Assembly (NCBI GenBank): GCA_032718475.1
Contig: JAUCBJ010006217.1
Span: 1-40,807 of the forward strand
Source: Nemertoderma westbladi
Taxonomy: Eukaryota > Animalia > Xenacoelomorpha
Direction: 5' to 3'
DNA: 40,807 bases
Below the pieces are notes generated by a model. The model was not told the origin of the DNA, searched no databases, and saw nothing but the letters and a program-made list of their open reading frames with translations. Each line of letters begins with the position of its first letter. Within the stretch, counting starts at the first letter, position 1. A program made the position numbers and the translations under genes. Of the stretch, positions 2,802 to 40,807 are shown piece by piece.

Positions 2802-2981
2802 GATGTTGATAAATAGATCACACAATTTCACACCAGTAGGCCTACATGTTTTTGCAATATTTTGTAGTTGAGCTGAGTTGAATATCAAATTTTTTGGGCC
2901 ACCCTAACTGTCAACGCTCGTGACTATTTTGTACTACAGGTATTTTAACAGACTGTCACTTTTGAAATTTAAACTTTTAAA

Positions 2982-5429: not shown

Positions 5430-5691
5430 ATTTTTGTGATTGATGACATTGACAGGATAATTAGCCCATGGCCTTTAAATATAAGAAAACTAAATCAAAA
5501 TAACTTTGTTTCATTGAGGCACCGTTTTTGATTTGTAAAAGGTACCAGTACTATGTTAATGTATGTACACTTAACATCACTTTGCTTTCAAACTGTGTAT
5601 AGCCTATATAGTTGCATTATTGGTACCGGTAATTGATAAATGTTTCAATTGGATTAGATCTCTGTTTGTTATATGATATAATAAGATACAT

Positions 5692-7254
5692 TTGAAAATG
5701 AAAGATTTAAGAGGATTTCTAAGAGGATATTGCAAAGAATGTGGTGAAGATGAGTGCTTCGACTATATAAAACCTGTTGATGATACAGCAAGCCAAAACT
5801 GTACATATTGCCAATGCCCCCCTACAAAGCACATTAAGCAAATATTACATGTTAGTTCGCCTGATAGTGATGTTACTGGTTCTTCAATTCTTAACCATGG
5901 TCCTGAGACCAATATGGGACTTTCTGTTGATATAAGCAATGTCTCCAGCTTTGAGCTTCCATTAGAAGCTAGCACCCCATGTGGTAAGAGCTCCAATGAC
6001 GGGGCATCGAAACAACCTTCTGCTGAATATGAAAATATCAACACTCTGTCAAGATCAACATATACCGGTAGCGATTGTGAATCATCAAAGTTGCATCAAT
6101 ATCTAAAAACCTGTTCTGAAGGACGTGAGTTATTAAAGAGATGTGATTTAGCTCTAGGTGAATCCCAGAGAAATGTCCTAGTTTCTTTAGCAATTAGAAA
6201 TGCGATGGATAATGACGACAGCCTTACACTCGATACCTTGGAGAGAATTGCTATTCAAATATCTCAACTCTTTACAAAGGAACATAAAGAGACTTACTTT
6301 TTCAAAAAGGCGGTTATCAAAAAGAACGGTGAGAAATCGTATGAAACACAAGTCCCATATGGAAAGTTGTACAACCGGTTCGTCACTGTAAAAAAGCGAG
6401 TTAGGTGTATTAATAAAATCGAAGATGGTGCCGCCAAGAAACATCAAGCTGTATCAAAAACGTCTACTGCTTTTACGGAATTTAGTTTGAAAGATCTATT
6501 TAAGGAAGCTGAGGATGATGTTAAGTTCATGGTCTACAATGGGTACAATTCTCAAAGGCACAAGAATACTTCAGTATATCGTGTAGTTGGGTTTCAGCGT
6601 GATGTATTGGAGCTGAAAAATTTCCCATATATGATGGACAATTCTTTCATATATGACTGCATAACGTATGATTTCTCTACGCTTCTGCAAGTTCGTGGGT
6701 GGAAAAATGTAAACACTAACGTTTTATTTGAATGCTCCTTTATTGATCTATGTCGATGTTTACTGCAGTCGTCCAAAGTAGATTGTGATGGTTTATCTGA
6801 TGACGCTTTGGTGAAACGTGGTCTGCTACATCTTCCAGCAAAGCTTTGTAATAAAGTGACCGTTCGCGTTAAGGGGTCGGGGAGGCGATTTTGGCGGCCG
6901 TCTATTGCTGATGCTGCAGAATCCTTTGTTATGGCAGCGAAGGACCATGCAGAAATGGACACGAAAATAAATGATATGGCTACAAAATATCTGGATAAAG
7001 ATCTTAAAATCAACCCGTTTGTTGTGTACCACTTAGATAGTGAGCAGGCGACTGTCATATACAACGACCAACGTTTTATTCGCCCGTCGGTTGTTCAAGC
7101 TGTTGATCTAGCTTTCAAACTGGCGCATGTGTTTCATCTCGAATACCAATCAGCTTGTCTTCCAGTTTGGCTCTTCTTAGAACAGTTATTTGGGATACCG
7201 GCGAGTGGAATATCCTCGAAAGTATCAAGCCTCTTGTCTGATATTGGAATGTAA
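5692..7254 (+). CDS. EnSpm/CACTA accessory protein (ORF2)
   Basis: 520-aa intronless ORF co-oriented just downstream of the transposase. Cys/His-rich N-terminus. The C-terminal AVDLAFKLAHVFHLEY...WLFLEQ motif resembles second ORFs of animal EnSpm elements. Confidence 0.7.
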   Translation: MKMKDLRGFLRGYCKECGEDECFDYIKPVDDTASQNCTYCQCPPTKHIKQILHVSSPDSDVTGSSILNHGPETNMGLSVDISNVSSFELPLEASTPCGKSSNDGASKQPSAEYENINTLSRSTYTGSDCESSKLHQYLKTCSEGRELLKRCDLALGESQRNVLVSLAIRNAMDNDDSLTLDTLERIAIQISQLFTKEHKETYFFKKAVIKKNGEKSYETQVPYGKLYNRFVTVKKRVRCINKIEDGAAKKHQAVSKTSTAFTEFSLKDLFKEAEDDVKFMVYNGYNSQRHKNTSVYRVVGFQRDVLELKNFPYMMDNSFIYDCITYDFSTLLQVRGWKNVNTNVLFECSFIDLCRCLLQSSKVDCDGLSDDALVKRGLLHLPAKLCNKVTVRVKGSGRRFWRPSIADAAESFVMAAKDHAEMDTKINDMATKYLDKDLKINPFVVYHLDSEQATVIYNDQRFIRPSVVQAVDLAFKLAHVFHLEYQSACLPVWLFLEQLFGIPASGISSKVSSLLSDIGM

Positions 7255-8713
7255 ACAATATATGGTATCTGAATGTTCCACGTTTTAGTTTTCGCTATTT
7301 TAGTTTCCACGTATAACCACTTTTATATATCACTTTTGCTTCCACAATTTCTCATGCTGTGATTTATCATGGCGCATTTTCTGCACCACAATTTTTTTAA
7401 ATTAAATTTAATTGCGCATTAATTATTTTTATCAATAGTTCACAATAATATCAATATTCTAGAACATCGAATTATGGTACATTGAAGTTAATGAAGTATC
7501 GTTTTACAAAAACTGTGGTACCGGTACAGAAAACATGACACAATTTATCATGGCACTAAATCACGCCATGAGAAATCACGCTCACCGGAAATTGTGGCAG
7601 CAATGTGGTCTATATATTTCATTGAATACTGAAATGGTTGTTACGCATAGTTAACTCAAATATATACTTCCACTGTGCTACATTAAAATTAAATTGTAAA
7701 ATGTGTATCATATTTGAATATGAAAATGTGTAAATTGAAATCTGTATATAAAATGTGCTATTATAACATAATACCGAAAATATTATCAATAATTATAGTA
7801 AATGTTTTTTTATGTTTTTCAAATATAATCTACCCTAGTTTTATATACATTTTTTATTGGGTATTATTACAATATTGGCAAATTACGTAGACATCTAGGT
7901 AGTTTGACTACACAGATTATTATGCAGATTAATAAGTCAGCTGGTGAGGTTACCTAAATAATTTTGCATAATAACTCGATAATCTAGGTATTTTACCAAG
8001 ATTACCTAGTTAGTTCAAATGACAAGATAATCTAGTCAATCTGCCATGGTATCTTTCAGCACAATATTGGATGGATTATCGTGTCAGTCTCTTAATTTTT
8101 TTTGGCAGTTTGCAAAGATAGTTTTTTGAGTGTGCTGCATTTTTAAATTTTGGATGAAAATTACAAGTGTTGCCATAACTCGAGAACGAAACTACTCAAA
8201 TCAAAAACTAATTTCAGATCCGGAATTACCATAAAATTTAACAACGGAATACTCTTTAAAAAAAATAAAAAAAGATTGGGCGTAACCCGAGTAGCTAAAT
8301 GAGTACGGTACTGGAGTTTCCTCTGGGGAGTATATATAGTTCTGTGGGGACCGCACGGGAAATAAGTCGTCAGACTATCGCGTAATCCCTGGCGTAGCGG
8401 CCGAAGAAAACTTTACTTTTATTTAAGAATACAAGTGATACAACTCAAGCACTGAGCTCGACCTCGTGCGCTACTAAGTAAGGTTAACAAAACACTACCG
8501 ATACTAAAAAAAACACTACTGGTACTTCTCTTTAAACTACACTATTTAGTCATACCAACGCCGTCCAGGAGTGATTCAATTAATACCGTTGAACATGATA
8601 GAACATACGTACGAAGTCACCCAGCCATTTACGAAATCTCAGGTAGACATAGACCAGCCGCCCACATTCCGTACATTTCTATTTCCACTAAATAAAATAT
8701 AAAATAATCGTAC

Positions 8714-10432
8714 CTTTAGGGTCAGTGACGTCACGAAGTCTTATGTTATCCAGATCGTAGGGAGTGCGAGAAAGAGAGACCATCCAGGACTCTGGGGTCT
8801 CCAGTGTCATCGTCAACAACGACTTCTCTGGGAGGCCAACAAACCGAGCAGACGGACCAGCTGAGGCAGCACCGTCGTCACGGAAACGTAACTCTGACTC
8901 CAACACGTAGCGGTAGAAGGTCTTTAACGGAATCTCCGACCATTTCTCGGCGGGGTTGAGAACGAGAATGATGTCGATGTTAATCACGTCATGGAGAGCC
9001 TCGAGGATGGGAACAACCCTCTGGGCGTCCCGGGACAGCGGGTCCAATACCAGGACCACATCGTGAGCCGGAGATGCGGCATCGCGTCGGGGGATAGGGA
9101 TCGCGGCGGGGATCAACTCCCGGGGGAAGCGGACGGACTCCCGGAGGTCGGCGCGTTGGTGACGGGATAGCAACGCGCACGCCGCCATAACGGCGTCGCT
9201 GCGGGCGGCAGGGTCCGCTAACGAGGGTAGACCCGCGAGGGACTCAGACACCGCGCCGCCGCACGAACCCAGCGAGAGCTTCTCCAATAGCATAAAATCC
9301 TGAGTGAGGAATGGCCGCAACAGGGGACCCAACTTCCAACCGTTAACCACAACAGCCGACTCGCCTGGGTTCAACCTCATAACAGTGGAAGAAAAGTCCA
9401 TATGCAGCTGGAATGCAGCGGATAATTCCAAACTCGACAACATTTCGACAACAGAATCTTTACTTATTGCACTGGGTAGGATGTCAAACAGCTGTTTACT
9501 CTGTGAATGAATCTCCAGTAGATTATCTTCGTTCATAAGTTTCTGTATAGCGATTCTCGACGCGCTCTGTCCCGCAACTCCACCAGTTTTTACTCTCAGC
9601 AAACTCTCGCAGACGGCAGCTACACTGGTAATCCCCCGAGGGACCACACCAGCTCCGGGGTTGTGGATTACAGCAAGCCGCGCCATCCGCGACGACTTTA
9701 TATGGGCGAGCGCGGCGGCTAGCACAGCGCGGCCCTCCGCCGCGTCCAGGTCTGCGACCACCCACAAGGTGACGGGTCGCACTGCGTCCGCTCCCTTGGC
9801 GAGGTACCGCAGACTCGACCGCAGTGCGGCATGCTGCTGCCCCTCCCCCAGGTACTCCCGTGTCCCGCGCAGGATAACCTCGTTGAGTCGGGGCACCACA
9901 TTGTTCTGCTCCATCAGGTGATCCAACAGGTTGGTTGAGTCAGTGACGTCGCCAGCCACCACCCACTGCTGCCACGAGTTGGTAGAGGTAAACACACTGC
10001 CTACTATTGACTGTTCTAGAAGGTCAGAATTCCCCAATGTTTCTGGCTCCACTGGAACTCCATTGAATAGAACTTGAGGAGTGGATTCCAATCCCGAAGT
10101 AGCAATGAATTCCGCAGCTGACTCCAACTCGGGCCATTGTGAACCGTCTATGTCTCCAAGATCGTCGCTGTATTGAGTAGCAAACGTAGTTTCCAAAAAT
10201 GTAGCATCGGAGTGGACAGATTTAAGAATGCGATGAAGTTTATGTAAAGCTGGCAATCCGCCCTTTTCGCGATACTCTTTCATTACGATTCGGGGAATAC
10301 CGATAGATGGATCTAGGGTTGCTTGTACGCTAGCTCCGCTGTTACTGTCGCTTGTTGCTAGAACTATTCCTAATCGTATTGGAATGTTGTTGTTGGCTAA
10401 AGACATCATAAAGTCCACTAATTCGTAAGCCC
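8714..10432 (-). CDS. UGGT: UDP-glucose:glycoprotein glucosyltransferase, coding exon 3
   Basis: IPIRLG, PQVLFNG, VRPVTLWVVADLD, DPLSRDAQR, KTFYRYVLESEL, PESWMV..YDLDNI match UGGT. Acceptor AG at 10434-10433 and donor GT at 8713-8712 (both phase 1). Confidence 0.92.
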
Positions 10433-11189
10433 CTGAATAAAATTAGATTACGATTATTTTATGGCCATCAATTTTATTGTTAAAAGAAAGGAACACAAAA
10501 CAAAATAGAAATACAAAAAAATTATAAATTCATACAGACAAGGGGGGGGGGGGGGGGGGGGTTGTCGTTTCAGAACTCCGTAAACGTTGTAGCAAGTTTG
10601 TATGGATTAGTGTGTTCAAATGGATTACAATTGCAAATAATGGGATCCCGCAGAATAAAAACAACAAAGATGCATATCATAATTATTGTGTCGGAATCTC
10701 GCAGTTAGAATGGTGAACGGATATTGACAATGATTTCATCCTTAAATTGAAGCTAATTGAGTATCAGTTTCATCTCGGGGGAGGGGGATGGCAATAAGTC
10801 GTTATAATGTGCTTAATTTAATAACTGACATAACGGCCCAAGAAAACTCACTGTTTTGGCTTTTACTTAACAATTTATATCCATGTAAAGGATCCAATAA
10901 TTCACTATCAATTGACCTCATTATCATTTCGTTCACATATTGTATGATTATATTCACATCACACCAATATTTCTGTGAAATAAAGTGACATGAAGTCGAA
11001 CTAAAACAGCTACAACTGTAGGCTGTTTATGGCGGCCGTTTAATCGAGTTTAAATAAAGTTCTTGAATCTTGAAAAAAAATAACATCCAACTCTTGAATT
11101 ATTGTAACAATGATGAACCTATTACTTAGGAAAATGAACGGAGGGGCAAGCCCCTTGAAATGCATTGGTTATAGGTTCAGCCCCACCCG

Positions 11190-11250
11190 GCTCCATTCAG
11201 CCTTTCATCCCATGGGGTGGACAAATTGAGGACCAGTTTAATTACTGGGT
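11190..11250 (+). mobile_element. Deu/Nin-domain SINE fragment in UGGT intron 2
   Basis: TCAGCCTTTCATCCCATGGGGTGGACAAATTGAGGACCAG resembles the conserved DeuSINE/Nin central motif (from memory: TCAGCCTTTCATCC..GGGGTCGATAAAATGAGTACC). Confidence 0.55.
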
Positions 11251-11419
11251 GCAAAACAAGGGATAGGGGTAATGCGAATCGGGTAGGAACCTACAACCTA
11301 CCGAGAGAGGAGCCTTCGGGTAGCCTCCGGTTTCGGCCGATTGTTTGCTTGGACAATGTTATAAAATAAAATTAAAAAATTAAGGCAAATTGAAAATACT
11401 AAACTAAGCGATAGAATAC

Positions 11420-11999
11420 CTTTATCGTTAGTCGGGTTAACAAGTAGAACGAGGTGGTGGAGATTCTTGCGAATGTGTCGTAGCACTCCGGGGAAGGTTG
11501 GTCGCAGGAGATCCCGCACCGAGGAAGGCCAATCCCGGTACAGGCGATCCGTCTCGAGATCATTGATCCACAGGATCCCCGGGTGTCGGATATCCAGTGC
11601 GTATTCGAATCCCTGCGAGACCACCGGGACCCGTAGCAGAGTCTGCAGCAATGCTGACTGGTCTACCGTGAGTCCCAGCAGGTTGGTTAGTCCGTGGATT
11701 AATTTAGTCTCGTCGTTGAGTAGAGACAACAATACGAACGGATCCAGTGTGTCTATGTTAATGGCCAACCCGTTAATGAACAGAGCCGAGGATGAGTGAG
11801 GTTGGAGAAGGTTCTCGTAACTTTTAAACGTCGTTTTTATCTTTTCGACGAAGGAGTTTTCAAGGCGAATATCAGCTAGAGAGTGAGAGAGGCGGGGGAA
11901 GTTGCCGCTGATGTTTTTGAGTGTGGCCAAGGCTATGGAGGCATCAACGCCAACTACAAACTGAGAAGCTTGATAGCTCAGACTCTGTATTTGCCACAC
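11420..11999 (-). CDS. UGGT: UGGT coding exon 2
   Basis: VWQIQSLSYQASQ, LFING, WINDLETDRLYRDWPSSVRDLLRPTFPGVLRHIRKNL. Acceptor at 12001-12000 (phase 0) and donor GTATTC at 11419 (phase 1). Joins in frame to both neighbours. Confidence 0.92.
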
Positions 12000-13181
12000 C
12001 TAGTGTTAAATATATAAGAAGAAATACAATGATTATATTTGTTTACCCAAACTACTAGTAGTACAAGTCAAGGACACAACACACATAGTTCAAACAGTAG
12101 AATTAATATAAATAGTAGAAATTCGCGAAATGCAAAAGTTAATAGGGCAATCTTTGAATCTCAGAGCCATTGTATATTTTGGGTATATTTGTTTATTATT
12201 TTGGTTAGGATTAGTTGGTCAAGCCTTAACCGTAATTAAAACTGTCATATAACCCTAACCCTAAGTCATAATCTAAGAAATTTAGTGGAATTTATTGCCA
12301 TAAGGCCGTTAGCCAATGAGGAGAGCTTATTAAAGGAACAGCCAATTAGAAGCCCAGAAATACTCCCATAGGCACCCCAATTGGAAATATGCGCACTGGT
12401 TTCAGTTTCATTTCTACGCCTAAGTCATTGATTGATGACGTTTATTTATTGATTAAATTACTTTTGATTAAACTCCAGAATTGTAATACTGTACTGTAAT
12501 TACAATTACTTGTAGGCCTACTGAAATAAAGCAACAAGTTCCTTTTAAAGTAATTTCATCTCAAGGAGGTCTGGCCTACTCTGCTACCCGTTTCATAAAT
12601 TTCTGTTTCAGATCGTAAGGTTTTTTTCCAATTTGTAAATATTTTTAACTTGATAAATTTTTAAGACAAATTACAAATATAGGCCTATTAACTATTAAGT
12701 AATGTATTACACCACGTCAACATATCAGCGCTCAGTGATTTATATTCATCACGTTGCGAAATACCGCAATATCCATGTAACTGGACTATTTACGCATAGG
12801 CGGATATTCTTAGATTTGCCATTGGCTATCATTGCCAGTACAATTGGATTGGCGTATTAAACTAAACTAGGCCTAAAGAAATATCTTACCGGTATCTTAT
12901 CTTATCTTAATAAATATCTTATTCTATTAACATCCATAGATTGTATAAATTATTTATCCTGCTTAAATTACTTAATAATAAATCAATATATATTTAATAC
13001 TACTTTAACTATAATTACGCGTTCTGCCCATAGTAGTTTTATTTGTAAATTTACTTTGAATGCGCAATGCGCATACGGACATAAACTCTTTTTATTAATA
13101 TACGTGGCAAGACCCTCTTCCCAGCTGTTCCCTCCAGCCCCCTGGAGGCTCAGCATGAAATATCTTATGATATATATTTAC

Positions 13182-14105
13182 CTTTAGGGGTTTCATTTCA
13201 TCCGAAGTATCTTTGAGATGCTGTCGGAAAGTTGTTAACTCCACTTTCAATTTGGGGTGCAGATCTGTTAGCTTTCCGAATAGGAAGCCCTGGATATCAG
13301 CCACATTATCGACATCATCTCCGTTATCACTACCGGCTGTTTCATCTATCACTTTATATTCCGTTGATTTTAGAGCCAATTCTACGCCGAAACCACTCAA
13401 CCTTACGGGAACCGCACGCACATCGAGATCACTCACGTAATGACGCACCAGGTAAACTATTCGGCCTTCTTCAGCCAAATTAATTAAATACGTGTAAAGT
13501 TGGTTGAAAGCTTTGGTCGCCAATTCGCCATAGTGTATGACCAGAGGTAAAGAATTGCGTGAAAAGTTATTATTAATCGGATAAGTATGATCAAAAGAAA
13601 ACACCGTGGATTTAAGTTGAGTAAAGGTTGACTTAGAAGGTTCTTTTAATTTCCGCAGTTCTAATTCGACTTCGTTCACAGAACACAGAGTTTCATTATT
13701 TATAATAACGAAGGAATTGCACGGGGGAATAGTGGGAATATTCTCGACCAACTGGTAATGAAGTTGAACAGCAGGAGAATAAGCCCTTAACGATAAGGCG
13801 AATCGGAGTAAAGGTATTTGCAAGTCTTTGAGGGCCCCAGATATTAATGATAATTCAAGTACTTTGTTATAATAATCTAGGTCGGTATAGTCCGCATCAA
13901 ACTCAAAAGAAGAAACGCTCCGCAAAAAACGCCAAAAGCCACTTTCGTCATTTACTCTGGCAATAAACTCGCTGGTTTCAAGAAGTAATGGAGTATTACC
14001 CCAGTTGGATTCGAGAATTGTATTTACAGGTTTCGCTTGAGAACCGTAAACATGTTCTTGTGACACTATAGACATAAGGATGAAACTCCGCAAAAATAAG
14101 TACAT
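13182..14105 (-). CDS. UGGT: UGGT coding exon 1 (signal peptide and N-terminal domain)
   Basis: Hydrophobic N-terminus MYLFLRSFILMSIVS, then W..TPLLLETSEF, LSLRAYSPAVQ, VRLSGFGVELALKSTEYK, IQGFLFGKL. Donor GTAAAT at 13181. An alternative ATG lies at 14150. Confidence 0.9.
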
Positions 14106-16043
14106 TGCTCGAGATGTTGAGGTGCTGAAGGTGAACGGCGATAATGCCATGATGAACCAAACCAACAACTGAAGAAACCCTAATCTTCAGTTGATAAACC
14201 GGCCACTCTTCCCGTACCGCCGTACGACCAGCCTTATACTGTTATATCGGTAGACGGTAGCAGAGAGGCCGAGCCGAGGCCTATCTCTGTATCTAGAACA
14301 GTAATAGCAGAATAGAAATTAATAGGCCTAATACTGTAATAGATCACCACCACCACCACCAGGTGTAGGCCTAAATAGGCCTACACTACAGAAATATTTT
14401 TATAACTATTTACATAGGCCTAGGGTACTTGTGTGTAAAGTAGCACTTTACATGGTGATGATCAGATCTGAGTGATTTGTTACACGAACGAACGTTAGTG
14501 AGTGAGTGAGTGAAAATAAAGCCACGAGGATTAGAACACTATAAAGTACTTTGTAACAAGTATGTATGTAGTTTTATTCCAAAATTGTAACATTCTGACA
14601 TTACGAAATGATTGTATATATATTATAATACAGTAATAAGTGATAGAAACTGCACAAATTAAATTAGTTGCTGTGTAAATAAATGTAAAAATAACATAAA
14701 TGTAACGCTGTAAGCATATCTGGCTGTCAGGCAATTAATCATCAATGCCACCTATTGTTTACGTGGTAAGTGGTAACCAATGACGCCGTAACTTTACAGC
14801 TCGCCGTCATTCAGTCATTGGCAATTGGTTACCACACAGCCACATACTGACTGAGACTGACTGACATAACAGCATACTAACGGCTGAACGGCGTTGAGTA
14901 CAGGAGTACAGGAGTAGTTACAATTTTGGAATAATAATTATTTCGGTATTTATTGACAAAATGACCAAAAAAACAAAATAACTGCTGACAAAATGACCAA
15001 AAAAACAAAATAACTGCTGAACTGTAAAATAACACCATAGATCTCAATTGTCCAACAACACTCAGTCAGACACGATATCGAAAGCATGTAACTGTGTAAC
15101 ATAGGCATAAATTAATTAATTACCGGACCGGGGAATATCAAACACAAACAACAATAACCTACAGGTTGGCAGTTGGGCGTGGGCGCGGCAGTTAGACTCA
15201 TCTGCTAATGGCTGAATCTGTGAATGGCAAATGGAAAGAAGACAATTGAGATAGTATTCTGTGATCTGTATCGTATGCCATGCACTGATGCAGTATAAAC
15301 GTAAATTGCACTTTATTGCTTGTTTTGTTCAGTTGTTAGGCCTCCGTACCGTACAGCCGTACTGTAGTACTGCTGGTTCTTTTTCAGATGTGCAATTGTG
15401 CAACAGTATTACTGCTGTACTGTAATACCAGACCAGTCAGCCAATTCTCTTACAGTCTGGCAGTACAGCAGACCTGCAGTATAAAGGTATAAAGCAATAT
15501 GAAGTGAAATAAGTAGGCCTAATACAATCTGACAATAGGTACTGCATACTGCCGTACTGGGAGACTATTATTGCGAGCGAAGAAGGTGTCTCCTTGAAAT
15601 ACACCACCCAACCGCACAACCGCTCAATAACAAATCAATGGGAAGCATCAGCACTGCGACGTTACGACTTGTGATTGGTTGAGTAATTTGTACTGTATTG
15701 TACTACCACTCTCCATAACATATATAATTAAATTGTATATTGATACTTGATAGACACTTAAATGTAAATAAACAGTAAAAGTAGCAGATATTAGTTGTGT
15801 TTGTGTATAGGAGGGAAAAGACCGCCAATGACATGCAGAAGCAATTAGACCTACTAATGTTGGTCCCAAAGTGAAAAATATTATAAAATATTATCATATT
15901 TAAAATAATTTCCAAAAATAAAAATGGCGGAAAGCACTGTTTTTAAAACAATAGAAAGTTTGACTTTTCTATAGGTAGTGTGTATTTGGCAAGACATAAT
16001 TAATAATATTTATATTATAAAATGACTAAAATCAACACTCTTA

Positions 16044-18297
16044 TAGATTTATTTATACATTATGTAAAAACAATAACAAATACACCAAACAATGTACCGG
16101 TATAAAGGTATTGTCCAACATAACATATAGGATTACCCCTAAAGCTTTGCAGCTTATTTCCAAGGGGGTCCTTTATGTTACTTGGTTACAAATACAATAT
16201 TACACTACGCTAACCTAAAACCAATATAAAACGTAATTACACTATGTACATGTACAACTTTACCGAGAGCGTGACAATGCCCGACTCAACGATAAAGATG
16301 TACAGTAATGTACAGAACAATTTATTATAAAACGTAATTACAGTATAAATAGTAAATAATTAATAAACTAATAACTTACTGTAGGACTATTGTACCTATT
16401 TTTACATTGCACACGGAGGTGAGATTTAACTGCAGATTTAAAAGAATGTTGATTATTTATGTTTTTAATTTCATTAGGCAGAGCGTTCCAATTTTTTATG
16501 CCGTTAAAAAAGAAAGTATCAGATTCAAAGGATTTACAATTCGGGAGGTAGAAGTTTGAAGCACTAGCTCTGGTACTGTAAGAGTGTGTATCGCGTACTC
16601 TGTTGAATTTTTGTTTTAGGTAATTGGGACATTTACCATTATACACTTTATGCACATGGTTAAGGCGTAGCTGCTTAACTCTACTATCTAAGTTAAGTAG
16701 TCCAGATTCAGAAAAGTCATCTGGAGTTAGGTGGTGCCTAGGTTTGTAGTCTTTAATAAATCGTACTACTTTATTCTGAGCTACTTGTAATTTACATTTA
16801 AGCTGTTTGGTTAAGCCTTCATACCAAGAAGAGCATGCATAGTCCATGTGACACTGTATTAAAGAAGAGCAAAGTAACTTGCGGGAGTCGGTGTTCAAAC
16901 TATTTTTATTTCTGTATAGAAACCTAAGCCTACTGTTAACTTTCGAGAAAATATTTTTCACTGTACTTTCTCCTGATAAGCAGTTATCCAATGTGGCGCC
17001 TAAATATTTAACTTCCTTTTTATTTTCAATCTTATGTCCATTACTAGTGACTTCAAACTTAGTTACCTTCTTTAACTTTCTTTTGGAACCAAACAAAATA
17101 CTTTCAGTTTTACCGTAGTGAATGGATAGCTTATTATCAACCAACCACTCATTACAGGATTCTAGAACTGCACTTAACTTTTGGGAAATATGGATAGGAT
17201 CTTTATGAGAGAAAATAAGAGCACTGTCGTCGGCATAAAAAATGAGTTTAAAATCGGGATCTATACTACTTATCATATCATTTACATAGCATACAAAAAG
17301 CAGAGAACCTAATATACTACCTTGCGGTACCCCACAGGTAATCTCTTGTACAGTAGACTGCGATTTGCTAATGACTACAGTTTGACCTCTGTCTGACAGG
17401 TAGGACTTGAACCAGTCTATAGAACCTACACCCATCAGGCCTAACTTACCAAGCAGAATTTCGTGATCTACAGTATCGAAAGCCTTTTGTAGGTCCAACA
17501 TTACCATACCAGTATATAAACCCTTTGCGTTATTACATCTAATTGTATCAGTTAAGTTAATAAGGCAGGTGTCTGTAGAATATGATTTACGAAAACCGGA
17601 CTGAAGTTCATAGATCAGATTTAGCCTACTAAGATGTGCCTCCAGCTGTAGAAAAACAGAACGTTCTAGAATTTTAGATACAATACTTAAGATACTAACA
17701 GGTCTGTAATTACAGGGTTCTACTTTACTATTCTTTTTATACAGAGGAACAACCTTAGCTAATTTCAGTTCGTCTGGTACTACATTATCTACGATAGAGT
17801 AATTAATAATAAAAGTAATAGGCACTTTAAGTACTTGAGCACCATCCTTAAGAAAACGGGCAGGTATTAGATCTAGACCGGTACTTTTTGAGGCTGATAG
17901 GCTAAGTAGATTTTTAAAAACGAAATCCTCAGAAACGGGTTTTAAAAATAACTTTTCTGAATTTTGTAACTTTTCTAAATAAAAATTATTTAGAGTTTCG
18001 GACCCTATACTATATTTATTACTTGATAACGGTAACTTCTTAACTAAATTAGAGGCAACATTAGTAAAATAATTATTAAATAAATTACTAACTAGAGTAT
18101 GATCATGAATCAGCTCACCGTTATCTTGCAGAACAATATTCGATTTAGATTTAAGGTTTTTATAACCTAAAGATTTTAGGGTAGACCATAGACTTTTTGG
18201 ATTATCTTTATTCTCACTTATTTTGTTGTACAAATATTCAGATTTAGCTTTTTTTATTTCCCGTTGGACAAGGTTTCTACAATGCGTAAATGCTTCT
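16044..18297 (-). mobile_element. 5'-truncated CR1/L2-group (Crack/Daphne-like) LINE; RT ORF at 16368-18233
   Basis: [43 protein letters not shown]. Hairpin in the 3' UTR and an AATAAAT-type tail near 16045. No endonuclease domain. Confidence 0.9.
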
Positions 18298-20822: not shown

Positions 20823-21204
20823 GTTTTAGTAAATGTTGCCGGGTAGTGCCTCTGGTTGTTTTAAGGGCTTCCGAAATAGTGACTCTAGTATTTTCAAGGC
20901 CCTTAAAAATAGTCCTTAAAATTACTAGAATCACTATTTCATGTCGCCATATCAGCAATATGGCCTTTTGAAATCAGCTGATGGCGTTGCTAGGTACCCA
21001 GTTTAAAACCAATCAGGAAATAGTGATTCTAGTAATTTTAACGGTTCAGTCCGGGACCTGACAATACGGGGAGACCAAGATACGACGTTACTAAGTCTCA
21101 ACTTGAATACCTCAAAGAGGCGGGATTTAACTGGACTCAGATTGCTGCGATATTTGGAGTGAGTCGATCAACTATTATGGATTATGTGATTATGAGTATT
21201 ATGT

Positions 21205-22723
21205 GTTCCCCCTGAGGTCTTTAAAATACCTGAGTGTTTAAAGCTCATCTATCCCATCATAGTAGACATGTACCGAACAACAGGAGTCCCACAAGAAATG
21301 AAAACAAATAAGTTGGTGCCAGTTCCCAAGAAGGGCAACCTAACACTCTATGGTTCTTTTCGGGGAATCTCATTGATCTCGATTGCTGCAAAGCTATACA
21401 ATAGGATTCTATTAAATCGCATCAGGGATCCCATTGAGAGACTGCTCCGTGGAAATCAGAATGGGTTCCGTAAAGGTCGTGGGACCATGGAGCCCATTTT
21501 GGCACTTAGAAGGATAATTGAAGAGTTATCAAAAAAGAAAGACAGGCATCTGGCTGTTATCTTTGTTGACTTCTTCAAGGCCTTTGATTCAGTCTCTCGC
21601 TCACGTATGTTCAGCATACTTTCATTATATGGGATTCCTGATGAAATTATTGCAGCAATCAGATCAGTATACGATGGTTCGACAACATTTGTGTCTACTG
21701 TTGAAGGTGACACAGAACCATTTGAAGTGTTATGGGGCGTCCTCCAAGGAGACACACTTGCACCATTCTTGTTCATTATTTTGGTTGACTATGTTCTACG
21801 CATGTCCTTAGATCATTATAATGATGATGGGGTGATGATAACTCCACCTACTGGCTCCAGAAGTCGAGGAAATCCTGCCAAGTACCTAACTGATCTAGAC
21901 TTTGCTGCTGACTTAGGAGTACTCTCAGAATCATTAGAGGGAGCCCAACGGCTCCTCAGCTCATTAGAACATGCTGCTTCTAGTGTTGGTCTTTTTATTA
22001 GCTCCAGAAAGACCAAAATTCTGACAGTTAACTTTGAAAGTCCTCAGCAAGTCTCTGATCGGATGAGCATAAGCTCAAAGGATGGTATGCTTGATCATGT
22101 GGACGACTTCTGTTACCTGGGATCATGGATCCGGAAGTCAGGTGAGGTCCTTCGAATACGTAAGGGAAAGGCATGGGCAGCCTTGAATAGGCTTTCCAGG
22201 ATTTGGAAGTCACCGAGAATTAATCGGAAACTTAAGGTCCGATTATTTAGAGCAGCAGTAGTTCCAGTACTCCTCTACGGGAGTCCATGCTGGGCTCTAA
22301 CTGCTGAGGACACCAAATCTCTGGATGGCACATTCACAAGAATGCTACGCCGGGTACATTGTGTCAAGTACAATGCACACATCTCCAACCAGACACTATA
22401 TAACATTGGAGGTGTCTCATTGGTTCCCCCAAGCTTGACACTAGAACAAAATCGCCTCCGCTTTGCAGGACATTGCTTTCGCCGTGAGGACCAGCCAGTG
22501 CATAATCTTGTACTTTGGCAGCCTCATGGAGTGAATAAGCATGGTGGACAGCCCATGACTTTCTTGAGACGCATCTTAAAGGACACTGGCCTTAAAGATG
22601 CGGATGATCTAGCAAATGTCATGGGTGATAGGGAGTTGTGGCGGTGCAATTTTGTTGACAAGCCGGCACAGCATTCTTAAAAATGCAGCTGCAATGCAGC
22701 ATGCCGATCCTAGTAGTAGTAGT
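21205..22723 (+). mobile_element. 5'-truncated RTE-clade LINE; RT ORF at 21268-22680
   Basis: FRGISLIS, QNGFRKGR, FVDFFKAFDSV, GVLQGDTLAPFLF, FCYLGS, RLRFAGHC. (TAG)n tail at 22711-22723. The catalytic FADD reads FAAD. Confidence 0.9.
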
Positions 22724-23348: not shown

Positions 23349-24735
<1,387 letters not shown>

Positions 24736-27624: not shown

Positions 27625-27980
27625 CTACTACTGTACAGTTCTATAATCGGCCTGCTGCATTGAAACTGCACATTGTGATGCTATGCCAGCTTAACAAAAA
27701 CATTTTGTCCCCTCCATGCAATCCACAATTGGCAAGCAATCCGCAATGGCCATGGGCCTTAAGGATGCTATGCCGGCTTATCAACAAAGTTGCACCGCCA
27801 CAACTCAGTATCCCCCATGACTTTCACGAGATTATCCGCATCTTCAAGCCCAGTGTCCTGTAGGATAGGTGTCACGAAAGTCATGGGCTTTCCATCATGC
27901 TTATTTTCTCCATGGTGCTGCCAAAGCACAAGATTATGCACTGGCTGGTCCTCACGGCTAAAACAATGTCCAGCAAAGGA
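27625..27980 (-). mobile_element. 3' fragment of the same RTE LINE family as 21205-22723
   Basis: Minus strand translates FAGHCFSREDQPVHNLVLWQ..DTGLEDAD..ELWRCNFVDKPA, closely matching the C-terminus of the 21268-22680 ORF. Confidence 0.88.
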
Positions 27981-30538: not shown

Positions 30539-31419
30539 AACGAATTATGATAAGCTCTAAGCTACACAAAATGTTATGTATAGTCTACACTGTGCAGTAT
30601 ATCAGTACCAGATTACATGGCCTAATGTCAGGAATTCCCGTATTTAGTTCCAAAATAGGATAACAAATTTGTTTCTATTATAACTAAGTTCGCTTCTGAA
30701 AATGTGCGAATGCAACTAAGTTCGTGTAACAACTGGTTAGTAATATTACCGGTTTACTGTTTTGCTTCTTAGATACAACTTAATTGTATTAACATTGTAT
30801 TTAATAATGTTTTGTACATTACACTTAACTAAACTCTACTTTCCTGTATCTTGACTCCGCTATCTCTGTACTTATCTTTATTGATAAAGTATGATAGTAA
30901 TAATAATACAATATGAGTAATGTATTTTTCTCAATTAAAATTTTGGAAACTTAGAAACACTAACTACATTAAGTAAATAATAGTGACTAAGATACTAATG
31001 ACGTCAATACAACTTAGGCCTAGTAATCATTTATGGATTTATGTTATGCCCACTTTTACAGACCCAATCACCCACATCCACTAGTAAATCTTAAACTCTC
31101 GATAGTGCAGCAACTTTATGTACCGTCGTTATCATATGCTATTACAGAAACCATATGATTTCAACAGTAGTCCGATTCACGCTTTATACTTCTTTACAAT
31201 AGTGGAGAAAGGCCTTATCAATGATTGGCTAAAAGATGGGTGGCAATTATTCGAAGATGAGGCACAAATTCTTGATTGGTTAAAAGATGGGTGACAATTA
31301 TTAAAATTCTTAATCTTAATTAGTCTTATTAATTCTTAATTATTTTATTTAAATTATATTTAATTTAAATATTAATTCTTAGTCTTAATTTAGTGGTGCA
31401 GTTTTGTTAGGGTAGGGGT

Positions 31420-31491
31420 GGGGTTCGTGGCACACTGCTGATGAGGAGAACCACGAATCCCAGGGTTCAGTGTTTAAATCTCCGAAACCCT
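31420..31491 (+). ncRNA. Hammerhead ribozyme, non-circularly permuted topology (copy 1)
   Basis: ACACTG-CTGATGA-GGAGA ... AGGGT-T-CAGTGT ... TCTCC-GAAA-CCCT gives stem I ACACTG/CAGTGT, stem II GGAGA/TCTCC and stem III AGGGT/ACCCT. Predicted cut after GUU at 31467. Confidence 0.75.
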
Positions 31492-32092
31492 TTTATTTTT
31501 ATAAAATTTATTACTTAGACTTACATTTTCGGCGGACAAAATGTCCTATATTTTTCGTAATTTATGGGATAGCCTATTTCGTGCAATACTTACCGGAACC
31601 TGTAGTTACTGTATGGTTGGGTGTAACTTTTCTTGTGGTAGTTGGGTTGGGTTATGTAGCACTAAAATCGATTTGGTATTTTGTTTTTTGATGGGCATTA
31701 GTGCCTGAGTACTAACAGTGGCCCAAGTGGCCCTAAATGCTAGGTAGTATCTGAGGGAATAAGACCCCATGTGTCCTATTTTATTGTTTTCATATTAATA
31801 TCACAATCCCTCTAAAGTCGCGGTTGTCTAACATCATATAATTATATATTTACAGGGGCATTTTCTGACATCTGCGCAATTTTGTTAAAAAATCTGATAA
31901 TTTATCTGTACATACCGGTAGGTGCTAATTGGGGTTGGTTGCATTCAGTGGGGAATCATGTTTATGCATTTGGGGCTGATGGTAACATACATTGGGGGTG
32001 GGTGGTTTCAACTCTGTTCGGTGGTACGGTAGGATTTCTAATTTATTGGTCATTGTCTTAATTTAGTGGTGCAGTTTTGTTAGGGTAGAGGT

Positions 32093-32164
32093 GGGGTTCG
32101 TGGCACACTGCTGATGAGGAGAACCACGAATCCCAGGGTTCAGTGTTTAAATCTCCGAAACCCT
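32093..32164 (+). ncRNA. Hammerhead ribozyme, non-circularly permuted topology (copy 2)
   Basis: Identical to copy 1 over all 72 nt. Predicted cut after 32140. Confidence 0.75.
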
Positions 32165-32559
32165 TTTATTTTTATAAAATTTATTACTTAGACTTACCTT
32201 TTTCGGAGGACAAAATGTCCTATATCTGTATATTTTTCGTAATTTATGGGATAGCCTATTTCGTGCAATACTTACCGGAACCTGTAGTTACTGTATGGTT
32301 TGGTGTAATTTTTCTTGTGGTAGTTGGGTTGGGTTATGTAGCACTAAAATCGATTTGGTATTTTGTTTTTTTGATGGGCCTTAGTGCCTGAGTACTAACA
32401 GAACAGTGACCCAAGTGGCCCTAAATGCTAGGTAGTATCTGAGGGAATAAGACCCCATGCTGCCATGTCCTATTTTATTGTTTTCATATTAATATCACAA
32501 TCCCTCTAAAGTCGTGGTTGTCTATCATCATATAATCTATTAGCTCTCAACCTAAGATA

Positions 32560-32965
32560 AATTGCTATCCTGCTGAGTGCTCCTACCACCTTGTGGAAGC
32601 CGCCTTTGCGCTCTTGCCACTACGACAAACAATAGTATGCCTATTCATTGGCTTGCCCTAAGACCAATCTGCCAATCTGTACTTGCTTGTCGTCATAAAG
32701 TCTGTATAACGGGTGCTCCACTGGTTATTAGTTTTTTGGTTATTGGTTGATTAGTTTACTGGTTATCTCCATACCATGCTGCCAGGTTACGTAACAGCCT
32801 ATCTTTCCTCCTTGTTTGGCAGATTAGTTTAGACACCCATATGATGAGTATATTTGATTGGTTGTGGGAAATCTGTTGGCTGTCGCTACTGTAATGTTTT
32901 GTGTGGCAGATCTGATCTGTAATCTCCTGCCTGCCCCTCTTAGTCTTCAGCTCTTTCCAGTACAA
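32560..32965 (-). mobile_element. Possible highly degraded RTE-like LINE 3' remnant
   Basis: Weak motif echoes across frames on the minus strand (ELKTKRGR, YGC, RLADW..PMNR..STRW). Confidence 0.25.
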
Positions 32966-35977: not shown

Positions 35978-36417
35978 ATGGATCGCGGAAGAGGGCGAAA
36001 GAAGGCGAAACTTATAAAAACCTCATCCGTCGCAGCCACTAGAAATAGATCGCAGCTTGCTGCAAAGTCTACTGGATCGAGTACCGGTACGGTGGAAATG
36101 TACGGCGAGCGCACTTCGGGATTTGTGCATAATAAAATGGAAGATGTCAATGATAAAGTAAGCAGTAGACCTGCATGCCTAGTTTGCGAAGACCACTATA
36201 ACACCACCACAAATTTGCCGATGCTGCTTAAGTGTGGGCATTCTTTTTGTGATACATGCCTGCAAAAGTTGTGCAAGTTGCAACGCGGTTCGTTAATGTG
36301 TCCCGGCCCTGGGTGTCATACCATAACTGAGGTTCGTAATCAAAGTGTCAAGTCCTTACCAATCGATGTTTACACCGTTGGGTTAACTACTCTCAATAGA
36401 ACCCAAGCTCATAAAAG
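35978..36417 (+). CDS. TRIM/RBCC protein exon 1 (RING finger)
   Basis: CLVC..PMLLKCGHSFCDTC..CPGPGC. Donor AG|GTAATT (phase 2). Confidence 0.85.
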
Positions 36418-36827
36418 GTAATTATATTACTAATTACGGGTACCGGTATTTAAATCTGCAGTGAGATTGAATATTTAATGAAAATAATACTTCGGTAGGG
36501 CCTACTTTTCTTTGCAAAAATTGATCGAGATTTAATATACTGGTATGGTGGTATCACCATTCATATTTTATATTCATATTTCATTGGTCTATATCACCAT
36601 TTATGGTTGTGTAATCTACTAAATTGCTAAATTTCAAAAAATATATGGGGTTTTTTTTTTTTAACAAAAAATGTTTTTGACAACATTGGGCTAAGTATAT
36701 AGCCTATTATTTTGTGGAATGAAGATTGAAATTAAAGTTAATTTTATCTGTTTTTTAGTAATATTTAGATATTGTAATAACAAATAAGCTAGGGCAGGGG
36801 AATAATATATTAAATTTTTTTTATCAG

Positions 36828-37019
36828 TGAATTGAATGTTTCGAAGAAACAGACTTCCTCCCAAATGAAAGCCCAAATGGCAGCGCGATTCGGTTTGCCG
36901 TTACCTAACATGATTGACCCAACACGCCCTCGCAGGAGCAGTCATGTTACTCCATTGTCTCCCACTGAGGCCGTTTGCGCAGAATGCGCAACCACGATAG
37001 CATCCAGTCACTGTGCTCG
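36828..37019 (+). CDS. TRIM/RBCC protein exon 2 (start of B-box 1)
   Basis: Acceptor TTTTATCAG at 36827, in frame with exon 1. Encodes CAECATTIASSHCA. Donor CG|GTAAGT. Confidence 0.85.
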
Positions 37020-37902
37020 GTAAGTAATACACAACCACGATAGCAGCATCCAGTCACTGTGCTCGGTAAGTAATACACAACCACCATAGCAGCATCCAGT
37101 CACTGTGCTCGGTAAGTAATACACAACCACGATAGCATCCAGTCACTGTGCTCGGTAAGTAATACACAACCACCATAGCAGCATCCAGTCACTGTGCTCG
37201 GTAAGTAATACACAACCACGATTGCAGCATCCAGTCACTGTGCTCGGTAAGTAATACACAACCACGATTGCAGCATCCAGTCACTGTGCTCGGTAAGTAA
37301 TACACAACCACGATAGCATCCAGTCACTGTGCTCGGTAAGTAATACACAACCACCATAGCAGCATCCAGTCACTGTGCTCGGTAAGTAATACACTACACA
37401 ACCACGATAGCAGCATCCAGTCACTGTGCTCGGTAAGTAATACACAACCACCATAGCAGCATCCAGTCACTGTGCTCGGTAAGTAATACACAACCACCAT
37501 AGCATCCAGTCACTGTGCTCGGTAAGTAATACACAACCACCATAGCAGCATCCAGTCACTGTGCTCGGTAAGTAATACACAACCACGATAGCAGCATCCA
37601 GTCACTGTGCTCGGTAAGTAATACACAACCACGATAGCATCCAGTCACTGTGCTCGGTAAGTAATACACAACCACCATAGCAGCATCCAGTCACTGTGCT
37701 CGGTAAGTAATACACAACCACCATAGCATCCAGTCACTGTGCTCGGTAAGTAATACACAACCACGATTGCAGCATCCAGTCACTGTGCTCGGTAAGTAAT
37801 ACACAACCACGATAGCAGCATCCAGTCACTGTGCTCGGTAAGTAATACACAACCACGATAGCATCCAGTCACTATGCTCGGTAAGTAATTCACAACCACG
37901 AT
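36989..37902 (+). repeat. 43/46-bp minisatellite, 20 copies, spanning an exon/intron junction
   Basis: Unit CAACCACGAT(AGC)AGCATCCAGTCACTGTGCTCGGTAAGTAATACA. 20 GTAAGT counted from 37020 to 37881. Confidence 0.97.
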
Positions 37903-37932
37903 TAATCATTTTGTTCCGATATTATATTTCAG

Positions 37933-38167
37933 GTGCAACGTGAACTACTGTGGACTGTGTTTCGAGAACATTCACAAAGGGTCGAGGATCCTGCGTCAGC
38001 ACCAAGCTACAGCCTTGTTTGAACATTCGAGTATCCGCCGCCATGTCTGTGAGACCCACACTGATCGCGAGCCTGAGCTTTACTGCACCCCATGTCAAAA
38101 GGCTGTTTGTTCATTCTGCTTACCTGATATACACAAGGGGCATGAAGTTGTCACATTAGAAGCCAAG
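37933..38167 (+). CDS. TRIM/RBCC protein exon 3 (B-box 1 end and B-box 2)
   Basis: Acceptor TATTTCAG at 37932. Encodes RCNVNYCGLCFENIH..RQH and CETH..LYCTPCQKAVCSFC..HKGH. Donor AAG|GTTAGT. Confidence 0.88.
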
Positions 38168-38932
38168 GTTAGTTAATTTTTAAATCCTGACAATCTGTCC
38201 TGCAACGAACCTGCTACCTTTACCTTTAACAATATGTCATGACATTCCATACCATCATATTATTTTGCAACAGCTGGGCTCTATGGCAACGGTATGACGT
38301 CATTACATCACTTCTGGAAAGTCGATACCCCGGAACCCCTCACCCAATTTTTTTTACAAATCGTAGTGTGATTCATGGAATTTGAAACAGCTGGTTAGAC
38401 TTCTGTTGGTTTTTATGTCAGCTTAGAGAGTTGACAGTTGAGTGTACATCAGATAAACTAATATCTGCGAATGAGTAACTCAACAATATTTATCTGTTGC
38501 TTTTGGTATCGGTACCTAAGTAATACCGTAACGCCTAGCCCCATTGCCATTATGTATGGTTCCAATTTATGGGGTGATACGTATTTCATTTAGCCCATGG
38601 ATTCCACCACTCCTTCCCGGGTAGTCTACTTCGGCCTTAAACGACAGTGAATTCAATTTAATTTTTTCCAAAAGTTTTCCATTTATAGGTCCTTACCTAA
38701 AAACCGTCCGGGTTTCGCGTCATTGGGTACTTTGGTGCAATATCATGGTGTTATTAATGGAAATGAGTATGTTACAGTGACATGTTATTCGAACCAAAAC
38801 AATAAGACGAGAGTCAATATTACATGTTACAGTTTAATTTTTGCTGAGAATAGATTTAGATTTATGGTAAGAAATAGGTTTGTTGGAAATATAAATAAAA
38901 CTACTGTATTATGCAGCACCAAACGCTAACGA

Positions 38933-39060
38933 TCCAGGGTAATGGTCCAGGGTAATGGTACAGGGTAATGGTCCAGGGTAATGGTCCAGGGTAATGGTCC
39001 AGGGTAATGGTACAGGGTAATGGTCCAGGGTAATGGCCCAGGGTATTGGTCCAGGGTAAT
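38933..39060 (+). repeat. 13-bp minisatellite (TCCAGGGTAATGG), ~10 copies
   Basis: Seen directly, in TRIM intron 3. Confidence 0.95.
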
Positions 39061-39125
39061 CCAATTTAGAACTGGAGTCGATATTATTATAGATATTTTC
39101 TACCATTATGATGTTCTATTTATAG

Positions 39126-39302: not shown

Positions 39303-39504
39303 GTAAGCAGTATAGTTACTTGATATATTATAGTGAGTTGATGAATGGTCAAGTTGTCATTATATTCTACATAGCCGCCATCATTTTTTTTATTTTAAAC
39401 CAATTATATTTTGTTAACTGAATATTATGTCGAACAAGGTATTAGATTAATATAATAAGGAATGCTCCAATTACAAATACAGTCCTACCAGATTATCCTT
39501 TGTT

Positions 39505-39990
39505 CCTTTTTTTTCTTTTTTTTAGAACATTTCCTTTTTTTCCTTTTTTTTAGAACATTTCCTTTTTTTCCTTTTTTTTTAGAACATTTCCTTTTTTTCC
39601 TTTTTTTTTTAGAACATTTCCTTTTTTTCCTTTTTTTTAGAACATTTCCTTTTTTTCCTTTTTTTTCTCTTTTTTTTAGAACATTTCCTTTTTTTCTTTT
39701 TTTTTAGAACATTTCCTTTTTTTCCTTTTTTTGAGAACATTTCCTTTTTTTCCTTTTTTTTAGAACATTTCCTTTTTTTCATTTTTTTGAGAACATTTCC
39801 TTTTTTTCTTTTTTTTTAGAACATTTCCTTTTTTTCTTTTTTTTTTAGAACATTTCCTTTTTTTCCTTTTTTATTAGATCATTTCCTTTTTTTCTTTTTT
39901 TTTAGAATGTTTCCTTTTTCCTTTTTTTTTAGATCATTTCCTTTTTTTCTTTTTTTTTAGAATGTTTCCTTTTTCCTTTTTTTTTTGGCC
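39505..39990 (+). repeat. ~28-29-bp pyrimidine-rich minisatellite, ~16 copies
   Basis: Unit TTTTTTTTAGAACATTTCCTTTTTTTCC. Confidence 0.95.
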
Positions 39991-40807
39991 ATTTTCACAC
40001 CTTTTATTCCTTTTTTTAGTTCAGAAAATAGCCTGCTGTAAGTGTAACATGTTCTATTCTGTACAAGGCAGCGGGGAGACAGCTGGACAGGTCTTGTAGT
40101 CTAATCAATTACTGGTACTGTACCACTGTCTGACTGTACTGTAGTTCCATATATGACGATTTCAGACTAAACTAACTATATACTATCAGATCAGTTGTAG
40201 TAGTCCTTGGTACTAAACTAATATAACAATGTACCGGTACCGGTACCTTTACCATTATCATACTACCATAGTCATAAATATTCAATTAATTGGCAAAAGT
40301 TCGTGTTTTTTTAAATCACATTGTCCCACTTTAGCCCAGGGGGGTAAAGTGAGTCATATTGTGTAAAATGGGACTGTTGACACTGGGATTTAGGTTATAA
40401 GTTGAGTTGAGTATGAAAAACGACAAATTAAACCAAACAATGAGTATATATGAATGTTTGGCTAGAGTTCAGTACCGGTATAGCACTACATTTTTAAAAC
40501 ATATATCATTGTTACTATGGCAACGTTGAAGAGTTATAGAACAATGTAAAAGTCTAGAACAATACATACATAATTTATTGTTAACATGAAATTTTTTTCT
40601 ATTGAGGCTGTGGCGATTCTATATATTATACACCATGACCCGTAATATAGTGTCATTTTCTGATGACAGGGACCCCCCCCCCCCCCCCCCAGATTTTTCT
40701 ACAAATCTTTATCATATTGTTTGAAATTTGAAACACAACTAGTTCCACTCATCGTGGTTGTTACCATGAAGCCGGAATTTTCGATTTCGCCTTTAAATTT
40801 TTTTTAT

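Follow-up and report, generated by a model that had tools for sequence, protein, structure and literature searches.

The 72-nt segment at positions 31420-31491 of the window (the whole 40,807-nt stretch of DNA analysed here, to which all coordinates refer; the motif lies on the + strand) belongs, judged from its sequence, to the non-circularly permuted hammerheads of type CSG as defined by Eckert, Friedrich, Weinberg and Weinberg (PMC10085705). Its 11-bp helix 4 is very probably the fourth, stem I-stem II joining helix of this hammerhead type: it would form first, close a 20-nt loop carrying the CUGAUGA core and likely hold stems I and II side by side at their far ends in place of the usual loop-loop contact, enabling a predicted cut after U31467. 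The pairing potential of this helix, the C-S-G order of the blocks, the intact core, the covariation with a metagenome homolog and the presence of two identical copies in a partial tandem were all observed.

Type CSG was described in 2023 from two unique soil-metagenome sequences without context, CSG-1 and CSG-2, which cut at the equivalent position with rates of 0.004 and 0.026 per min and for which the published covariation is modest (PMC10085705). Helix 4 itself is not new, and the idea put forward in an earlier note on this DNA, that an additional helix could scaffold a hammerhead by joining stems I and II, is largely in print in that paper; the earlier note neither named the motif type nor saw its repeat context. 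Within the literature covered, which did not extend to subscription papers and bioRxiv supplements, type CSG appeared only in PMC10085705 and no paper tied it to Penelope-like elements, Naiads or animal repeats, and a term search for "CSG" in the available parts of PMC10761166 and PMC13725137 returned nothing.

A complete CSG layout with a dominant fourth helix

From 5' to 3', the chain consists of the helix 4 5' strand (31420-31430), a C joint (31431), block C (31432-31449), an A joint leading from stem II to helix 4 (31450), the helix 4 3' strand (31451-31461), block S (31462-31473), a UUAAA stretch linking stem I with stem II (31474-31478) and block G (31479-31491). Block C comprises the stem I 5' strand (31432-31437), the CUGAUGA core (31438-31444) and the stem II 5' strand (31445-31449); block S comprises the stem III 3' strand (31462-31466, ending with U16.1), U17 (31467) and the stem I 3' strand (31468-31473); and block G comprises the stem II 3' strand (31479-31483), the GAAA core (31484-31487) and the stem III 5' strand (31488-31491). 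The CUGANGA, UH (31466-31467) and GAAA core elements are intact, and stems I-III form uninterrupted helices of 6, 5 and 4+1 bp with only Watson-Crick pairs. By analogy with the sites of CSG-1 and CSG-2, cleavage is predicted at 31467|31468, after GUU. A second, identical copy of the 72-nt motif sits 673 nt downstream of the first, at 32093-32164 (+), with its helix 4 at 32093-32103/32124-32134 and its predicted cut at 32140|32141.

Helix 4, with its 11 bp, connects stem I to stem II at their distal ends through one-nucleotide joints, and the direct linker between the two stems is short (5 nt). All of this agrees with the earlier note: the helix has the 10 Watson-Crick pairs and one G-U pair claimed for it, as can be read directly from the letters; C31431 leads into stem I and A31450 comes from stem II; nucleotide 31461 abuts 31462 without any gap, so that in the window copy the helix does run directly into stem III; and the UUAAA linker is present. 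A twelfth pair of helix 4 is also possible if U31419 takes A31462 from stem III, a detail that, like the second copy of the motif, is absent from the earlier note. The classical hammerhead types I, II and III are circular permutations of a three-way junction closed by hairpin loops and do not describe this motif, whose stems cross. No Rfam family matched the window at gathering score and no hammerhead family matched 31300-32600 at E values up to 5; two Rfam matches at E 1.9 and 2.7 are unrelated to the motif and were set aside as chance.

Compared with CSG-1 and CSG-2, the window motif shares the C-S-G order, a 6-bp stem I, a linker starting with UUAA in the same register, a fourth helix whose strands lie close to stem I on its 5' side and close to the stem II 5' strand on its 3' side, a distance of 16 nt from the cut to GAAA and a short connection to stem III (PMC10085705). 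It differs from them by a longer helix 4 (11-12 bp versus 8 bp), by the absence of any tether to stem III (0 nt versus 2 nt), by its joint nucleotides (C/A versus U/G), by its cleavage site (GUU versus GUC), by its unrelated stem sequences and by its setting, an animal-genome repeat rather than soil metagenome DNA.

Helix 4 is the strongest helix of the motif, with a duplex energy of -18.7 kcal/mol compared with -5.6 to -6.1 kcal/mol for stems I-III, making it about three times as strong as any of these. All 11 of its pairs were predicted to form with a probability of 1.0 in four contexts ranging from 72 to 670 nt, in models restricted to nested folds, which cannot score stems I and II at the same time as helix 4. 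This predicted pairing was unchanged when a G-quadruplex was allowed in the G-rich leader. When the whole 40.8-kb window was dinucleotide-shuffled 300 times and searched on both strands, a loose CSG core appeared only once, and none of the shuffled sequences gave a core as strong as the window motif or one with a helix of at least 8 bp. Outside of the repeat itself, none of 79,114 background positions could pair at least 11 bases with the helix 4 3' strand, while 5 positions reached 10. In the motif, 65 of the 72 nt are either paired or part of the core, the other 7 being the two joints and the 5-nt linker. Helix 4 is real and far beyond chance.

Helix 4 is kept by paired changes in a metagenome homolog

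Using a scan pattern that did not include helix 4, we found a metagenome locus, L160, which carries two full CSG motifs in a 114-nt tandem. Between the window and L160, 10 of 10 compared helix 4 pairs are kept, none being broken although both partners have changed in 7 of them; changes on both sides also occur in stems I, II and III (2/6, 3/5 and 2/4 pairs, respectively), again with no broken pair. A model with 11 pairs has 94% of its cells paired, compared with 30-55% in slid registers, and the outermost pair is missing in L160. This test compares only two independent families in 3 rows, and the shuffle count returned by the tool is not a probability; the full MAFFT alignment was gapped inside the helix, and the comparison is based on a 42-column alignment and on coordinate blocks. 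The C/A joint nucleotides and the length of the linker are the same in L160, where the tethers between helix 4 and stem III measure 11 and 8 nt.

Several other features of this locus were recorded. The 114-nt tandem (L160 1279-1532) starts 5 nt before the predicted cut site, the stem III sequence differs between the two full copies with its pairing preserved, and the units can be read as type SGC (with a 33-nt tether) as well as CSG.

The pattern scans returned 35, 3 and at least 120 stretches from viral contigs, 2 from metagenomes and 7 from prokaryote genomes, and among the scan matches listed, L160 was the only one of 167 loci that passed a CSG descriptor. These scans are weak, since they required G-C as the first pair of stem I and since the metagenome scan missed the published CSG-1 and CSG-2 contigs although the pattern fits them, so that the positive control failed.

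Nematode Naiads carry the same layout in their 3' tails

Naiads, a kind of Penelope-like retrotransposon, are said to lack canonical hammerheads, some of their tails being marked HHR_core or HHR_half_core (Craig et al. 2021, PMC8557442). Examining the consensus sequences of File S5 of that study by eye, we found that 8 of 8 nematode Naiad 3' tails contain a C-S-G hammerhead with a helix 4 of 9-17 bp and of unrelated sequence. Naiad_Parc is identical to the window motif in the lengths of stem I (6 bp) and stem II (5 bp), the C/A joints, the 5-nt linker, the 11-bp helix and the zero tether, and the entry that precedes it (probably Ppac; its header was not in view) also has an 11-bp helix, a tether of 0 and a 5-nt linker. 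The others, still by eye, are Naiad Nbra-1 (helix of 12-13 bp, tether of 7 nt, linker of 2-3 nt), Nbra-2 (12-13 bp, 11 nt, 3-4 nt), Nbra-3 (9 bp, 16 nt, 5 nt), Naiad_Hcon (15 bp, 0-1 nt, 2 nt), Naiad_Hpol (17 bp, 0 nt, 3 nt) and Naiad_Asuum (10-11 bp, 0 nt, 3 nt). In the Naiad_Asuum tail, moreover, CUGACGA is separated from stem II by an additional U, and stem III contains a mismatch. All eight tails open stem I with an A-U or U-A pair, unlike the G-C of the window, and none of the eight would have satisfied the pattern used in the scans described above. Two arthropod Naiad entries viewed whole (Lpol and Ptep) did not, by eye, show the layout of type CSG; for the remaining 44 Naiad entries, and likewise for the Chlamys and Hydra files, coverage consisted of motif look-ups alone. 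From these sequences, the CSG motif is likely the missing ribozyme of nematode Naiads.

Helix 4 fits a clamp on stems I and II better than a strut to stem III

Together with the window family, the two L160 copies and CSG-1/2, the eight nematode Naiads give 13 sequences. Helix 4 is present in 13 of 13. Its joints to the two stems measure 0-2 nt and the linker between stem I and stem II measures 2-5 nt; across these members the helix varies in sequence and in length while its pairing is maintained. Facing one-nucleotide joints occur in 11 of the 13 (C/A in five, U/G in five and G/C in one), Naiad_Hcon and Nbra-3 not fitting this pattern cleanly. C-A and U-G wobble pairs are isosteric, so that what had been described as two one-nucleotide junctions is probably a capping pair on helix 4, and C31431 opposite A31450 is predicted to form such a C-A wobble. 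The tether between helix 4 and stem III is not conserved (0-16 nt). Joints that stay within 0-2 nt next to a tether that ranges from 0 to 16 nt point to a clamp on stems I and II as the conserved role of helix 4, and a strut is possible in the window copy.

Experimental evidence on a counterpart of helix 4 comes from type SGC. In SGC-3, the corresponding helix is required, as its disruption (M8) blocks cleavage and its compensation (M9) restores it, and in that paper the joining helix was mutated in type SGC (SGC-3) only, not in CSG (PMC10085705). Types CSG and SGC differ by a circular permutation of a common wiring, making this result relevant but indirect: HRIMA-1 and SGC-3 have the same helix that links stem I to stem II, a direct linker between these stems and a helix-to-stem III tether of 0-44 nt, whereas their chain opens elsewhere, their linker is typically 3 nt and they come from metatranscriptomes. 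The joining role that the earlier note gave to the helix, in replacement of the usual loop contact, gains from this disruption and compensation and from the covariation with L160.

The same note further proposed that the helix is a strut back to stem III. In its rigid form, helix 4 would pack on the stem II/III stack and enter stem III without slack, and this contact would organise the fold. The zero tether of the window copy agrees with such a strut, as does the length of the helix, 11-12 bp being close to the 13 steps (5 + about 3 + 5) that we estimate between the end of stem II and the end of stem III from the A-form rise and a coaxial II/III stack, a stack stated in PMC10085705; Naiad_Hpol (17 bp, a stem III of 9 and a tether of 0) and Naiad_Hcon (15 bp, a stem III of 10-11 and a tether of 0-1) scale alike. 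Other members point the other way. CSG-1/2 have a tether of 2 nt, the L160 copies have tethers of 8 and 11 nt, and those of the Nbra Naiads measure about 7, 11 and 16 nt. Three members that lack a tether altogether, Naiad_Asuum, Naiad_Parc and the entry that precedes the latter, combine a helix of only 10-11 bp with a 12-bp stem III, for which we estimate some 20 steps that could not be spanned without fraying. We therefore consider a rigid strut unlikely as the general role of helix 4.

In the mechanism that we favor, a clamp on stems I and II, helix 4 would form as soon as nucleotide 31461 is transcribed, displacing upstream mispairing; its pairing is predicted to be complete once 42 of the 72 nucleotides have been made, when blocks S and G are still missing. 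The closed 20-nt loop would present both half-stems around CUGAUGA, and the downstream strand would then pair with one end of this loop (stem I), cross through UUAAA to its other end (stem II) and fold back to close stem III, which would create two pseudoknots. C31431 would face A31450 in a wobble pair resembling the U-G of other members. Both strands would thus hold stems I and II together at their far ends, the job done by the loop-loop contact in classical hammerheads. In the window copy, the 11-12 bp helix would also be about the right length to lie beside the stem II/III stack and lead straight into stem III, an arrangement that is no requirement across the family. In types SGC and CSG, helix 4 and stem III are joined by a very short connection, which was noted not to fit the crystal structure in an obvious way and was left as an open question (PMC10085705).

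Helix 4 might also be a folding aid only, protecting block C against mispairing while blocks S and G are still to be transcribed, and contributing little to the active structure. Block C is indeed predicted to pair upstream until the 3' strand exists, this pairing being displaced by helix 4 at 31461. Joints of 0-2 nt and a linker of 2-5 nt in 13 of 13 sequences nevertheless point to a fixed geometry, and the helix is required in SGC-3 (PMC10085705). The two roles can coexist, and a pure folding aid appears very improbable to us.

Cleavage by the clamped hammerhead after GUU at 31467|31468 would release 673-nt units with 5'-OH and cyclic-phosphate ends from read-through tandem transcripts. U is the weakest natural nucleotide at H17, and the nested fold lets U17 pair with A14. 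The leader at 31409-31418 can pair with 31479-31491 (stem II 3' strand and stem III 5' strand) and extend helix 4, a possible off-state, and this pairing with block G cuts the predicted pairing of stem III to 0.2-0.7 in longer contexts. Both the U at position 17 and the leader speak against efficient cutting. One may then ask whether the motif is intact and yet mostly silent where it stands, through the upstream decoy or the GUU site, and is kept merely because the family is young; the copies show few differences overall near the motif. Arguing against this, neither copy has lost a core nucleotide, a GUU site is also present in Naiad_Hpol (by eye; PMC8557442), and the nested models understate the active fold since they leave out stems I and II, which are pseudoknotted. 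A mostly silent motif seems quite unlikely to us, and a ribozyme clamped by helix 4 remains our preferred reading.

The motif sits in a young, probably many-copy repeat of Penelope-like layout

The two motif copies belong to two direct repeats on the + strand, a first one of 461 bp (31382-31842) and a second one of 482 bp (32055-32536, the 3' end of the element lying at about 32536), which are identical at 445 of 454 aligned bases and are separated by 212 bp (31843-32054). Contig depth over the motif was 367, 4638 and 5800 in three DNA runs, compared with about 13-45 for rare variants; these depths are not a copy number, and they suggest that the element is present in many copies. The junction from position 32050 to the repeat was found on many family contigs in the three runs. 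From this high depth and frequent junction, we read the upstream repeat as a 5'-truncated copy, or pseudo-LTR, placed before a full 694-bp unit (31843-32536) of which the 212-bp stretch is the head. A truncated copy followed by a full unit is the partial tandem typical of Penelope-like elements (PMC8557442), and 31382-31842 followed by 31843-32536 has this layout.

Variants reaching a share of at least 3% occur at 36 positions elsewhere in the 668 bp and at none of the 72 nt of the motif (P = 0.015), and at a share of 1% helix 4 still has none, leaving no within-family covariation to count. The family is young, and the invariance of the motif therefore says little. A G12A core variant at 32157 (equivalent to 31484), the one change in the motif at a share of 1%, makes up 0.1-1.8% of the depth in the three runs and likely marks dead copies. 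An additional run, X5, carries another organism label and its RNA status is a guess; it covered 31830-32033 at a depth of 2.2, leaving the ribozyme uncovered, and was not used.

The 5' flank of the element (31305-31381) is AT-rich. It is a patchwork with short echoes of the first bases of the element and a 17-nt repeat (31305/31374). Searching the flanks for a target-site duplication of at least 7 nt gave no shared word. A Pfam scan of 8 frames of the window detected no GIY-YIG domain, the two reverse-transcriptase frames of the window are 9-15 kb away, and we found no sequence link between the window element and a Naiad. A minus-strand likeness of the 3' part of the repeat to a Naiad 5' motif was dropped, as its spacing differs between copies.

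Naiads and the window element share the partial-tandem layout, and they differ in that Naiads encode an endonuclease and a reverse transcriptase while the window element has no such frame (PMC8557442). The carrier is likely a non-autonomous Naiad-type Penelope-like element, and would rely on the reverse transcriptase supplied by a Penelope-like retrotransposon of the Naiad type.

An alternative that we hold to be possible, if doubtful, sees in the carrier a classical non-LTR retrozyme, spreading via a self-paired circular RNA, and not a Naiad-derived element. Like animal non-LTR retrozymes, the carrier is non-coding, rich in A and T and repeated in an animal genome, each unit holding one hammerhead; a monomer would be freed by the two ribozymes, which lie 673 nt apart, the GC content of the carrier is low, L160 is itself a 114-nt tandem, and reported animal non-LTR units span 51-972 bp (PMC7229834; bioRxiv 10.64898/2026.07.22.740005). 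However, the circles described in these two sources are highly self-paired, measure 170-400 nt and carry type I hammerheads, whereas the hammerhead of the window is of type CSG and its 673-nt monomer is unstructured, folding no better than shuffled sequences (z = +1.17; 19 of 20 shuffles as good). As animal retrozymes have themselves been proposed to derive from Penelope-like elements (PMC7229834; bioRxiv 10.64898/2026.07.22.740005), the retrozyme and the Naiad-derived readings overlap.

Bringing the Naiad tails and the carrier together, we lean slightly towards a broader reading, in which CSG, rather than an environmental curiosity, would be the working 3'-end ribozyme of an entire branch of Naiads and of its short dependants, overlooked since hammerhead descriptors assume hairpin loops. 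Soil animals carrying elements of this kind would then be the source of both soil CSG sequences, and the fourth helix, capped at a seamless junction by a conserved wobble pair, would be a portable clamp replacing the loop-loop contact. Type CSG goes here from two sequences to 13 comparable ones, with an animal-repeat and Naiad-tail setting. If the Naiad motifs cut, the claim that Naiads spread without a hammerhead needs revision, and the motifs would offer a natural series (tethers of 0-16 nt, helices of 8-17 bp) for the question of the helix 4-stem III connection left open in PMC10085705.

Other features of the window

On the minus strand, 8688-14186 contains three large exons of a UDP-glucose:glycoprotein glucosyltransferase; the best 120 named relatives of the exon searched were all animal proteins, at 36-40% identity, which identifies the window as animal DNA. 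The two reverse-transcriptase frames (PF00078) lie at 16368-18296 (-) and 21196-22680 (+), and part of the latter recurs inverted at 27759-27978. Two open frames of 818 and 525 amino acids at 2973-5429 and 5677-7254 (+) have no Pfam family above the cut-off and resemble a DNA transposon, and a frame with a RING finger (PF13445) is found at 35978-36421 (+). Finally, tandem arrays occupy 23717-24532 (period of about 315 bp), 36893-37998 (about 46 bp), 38901-39082 (about 13 bp) and 39445-40048 (about 28 bp).
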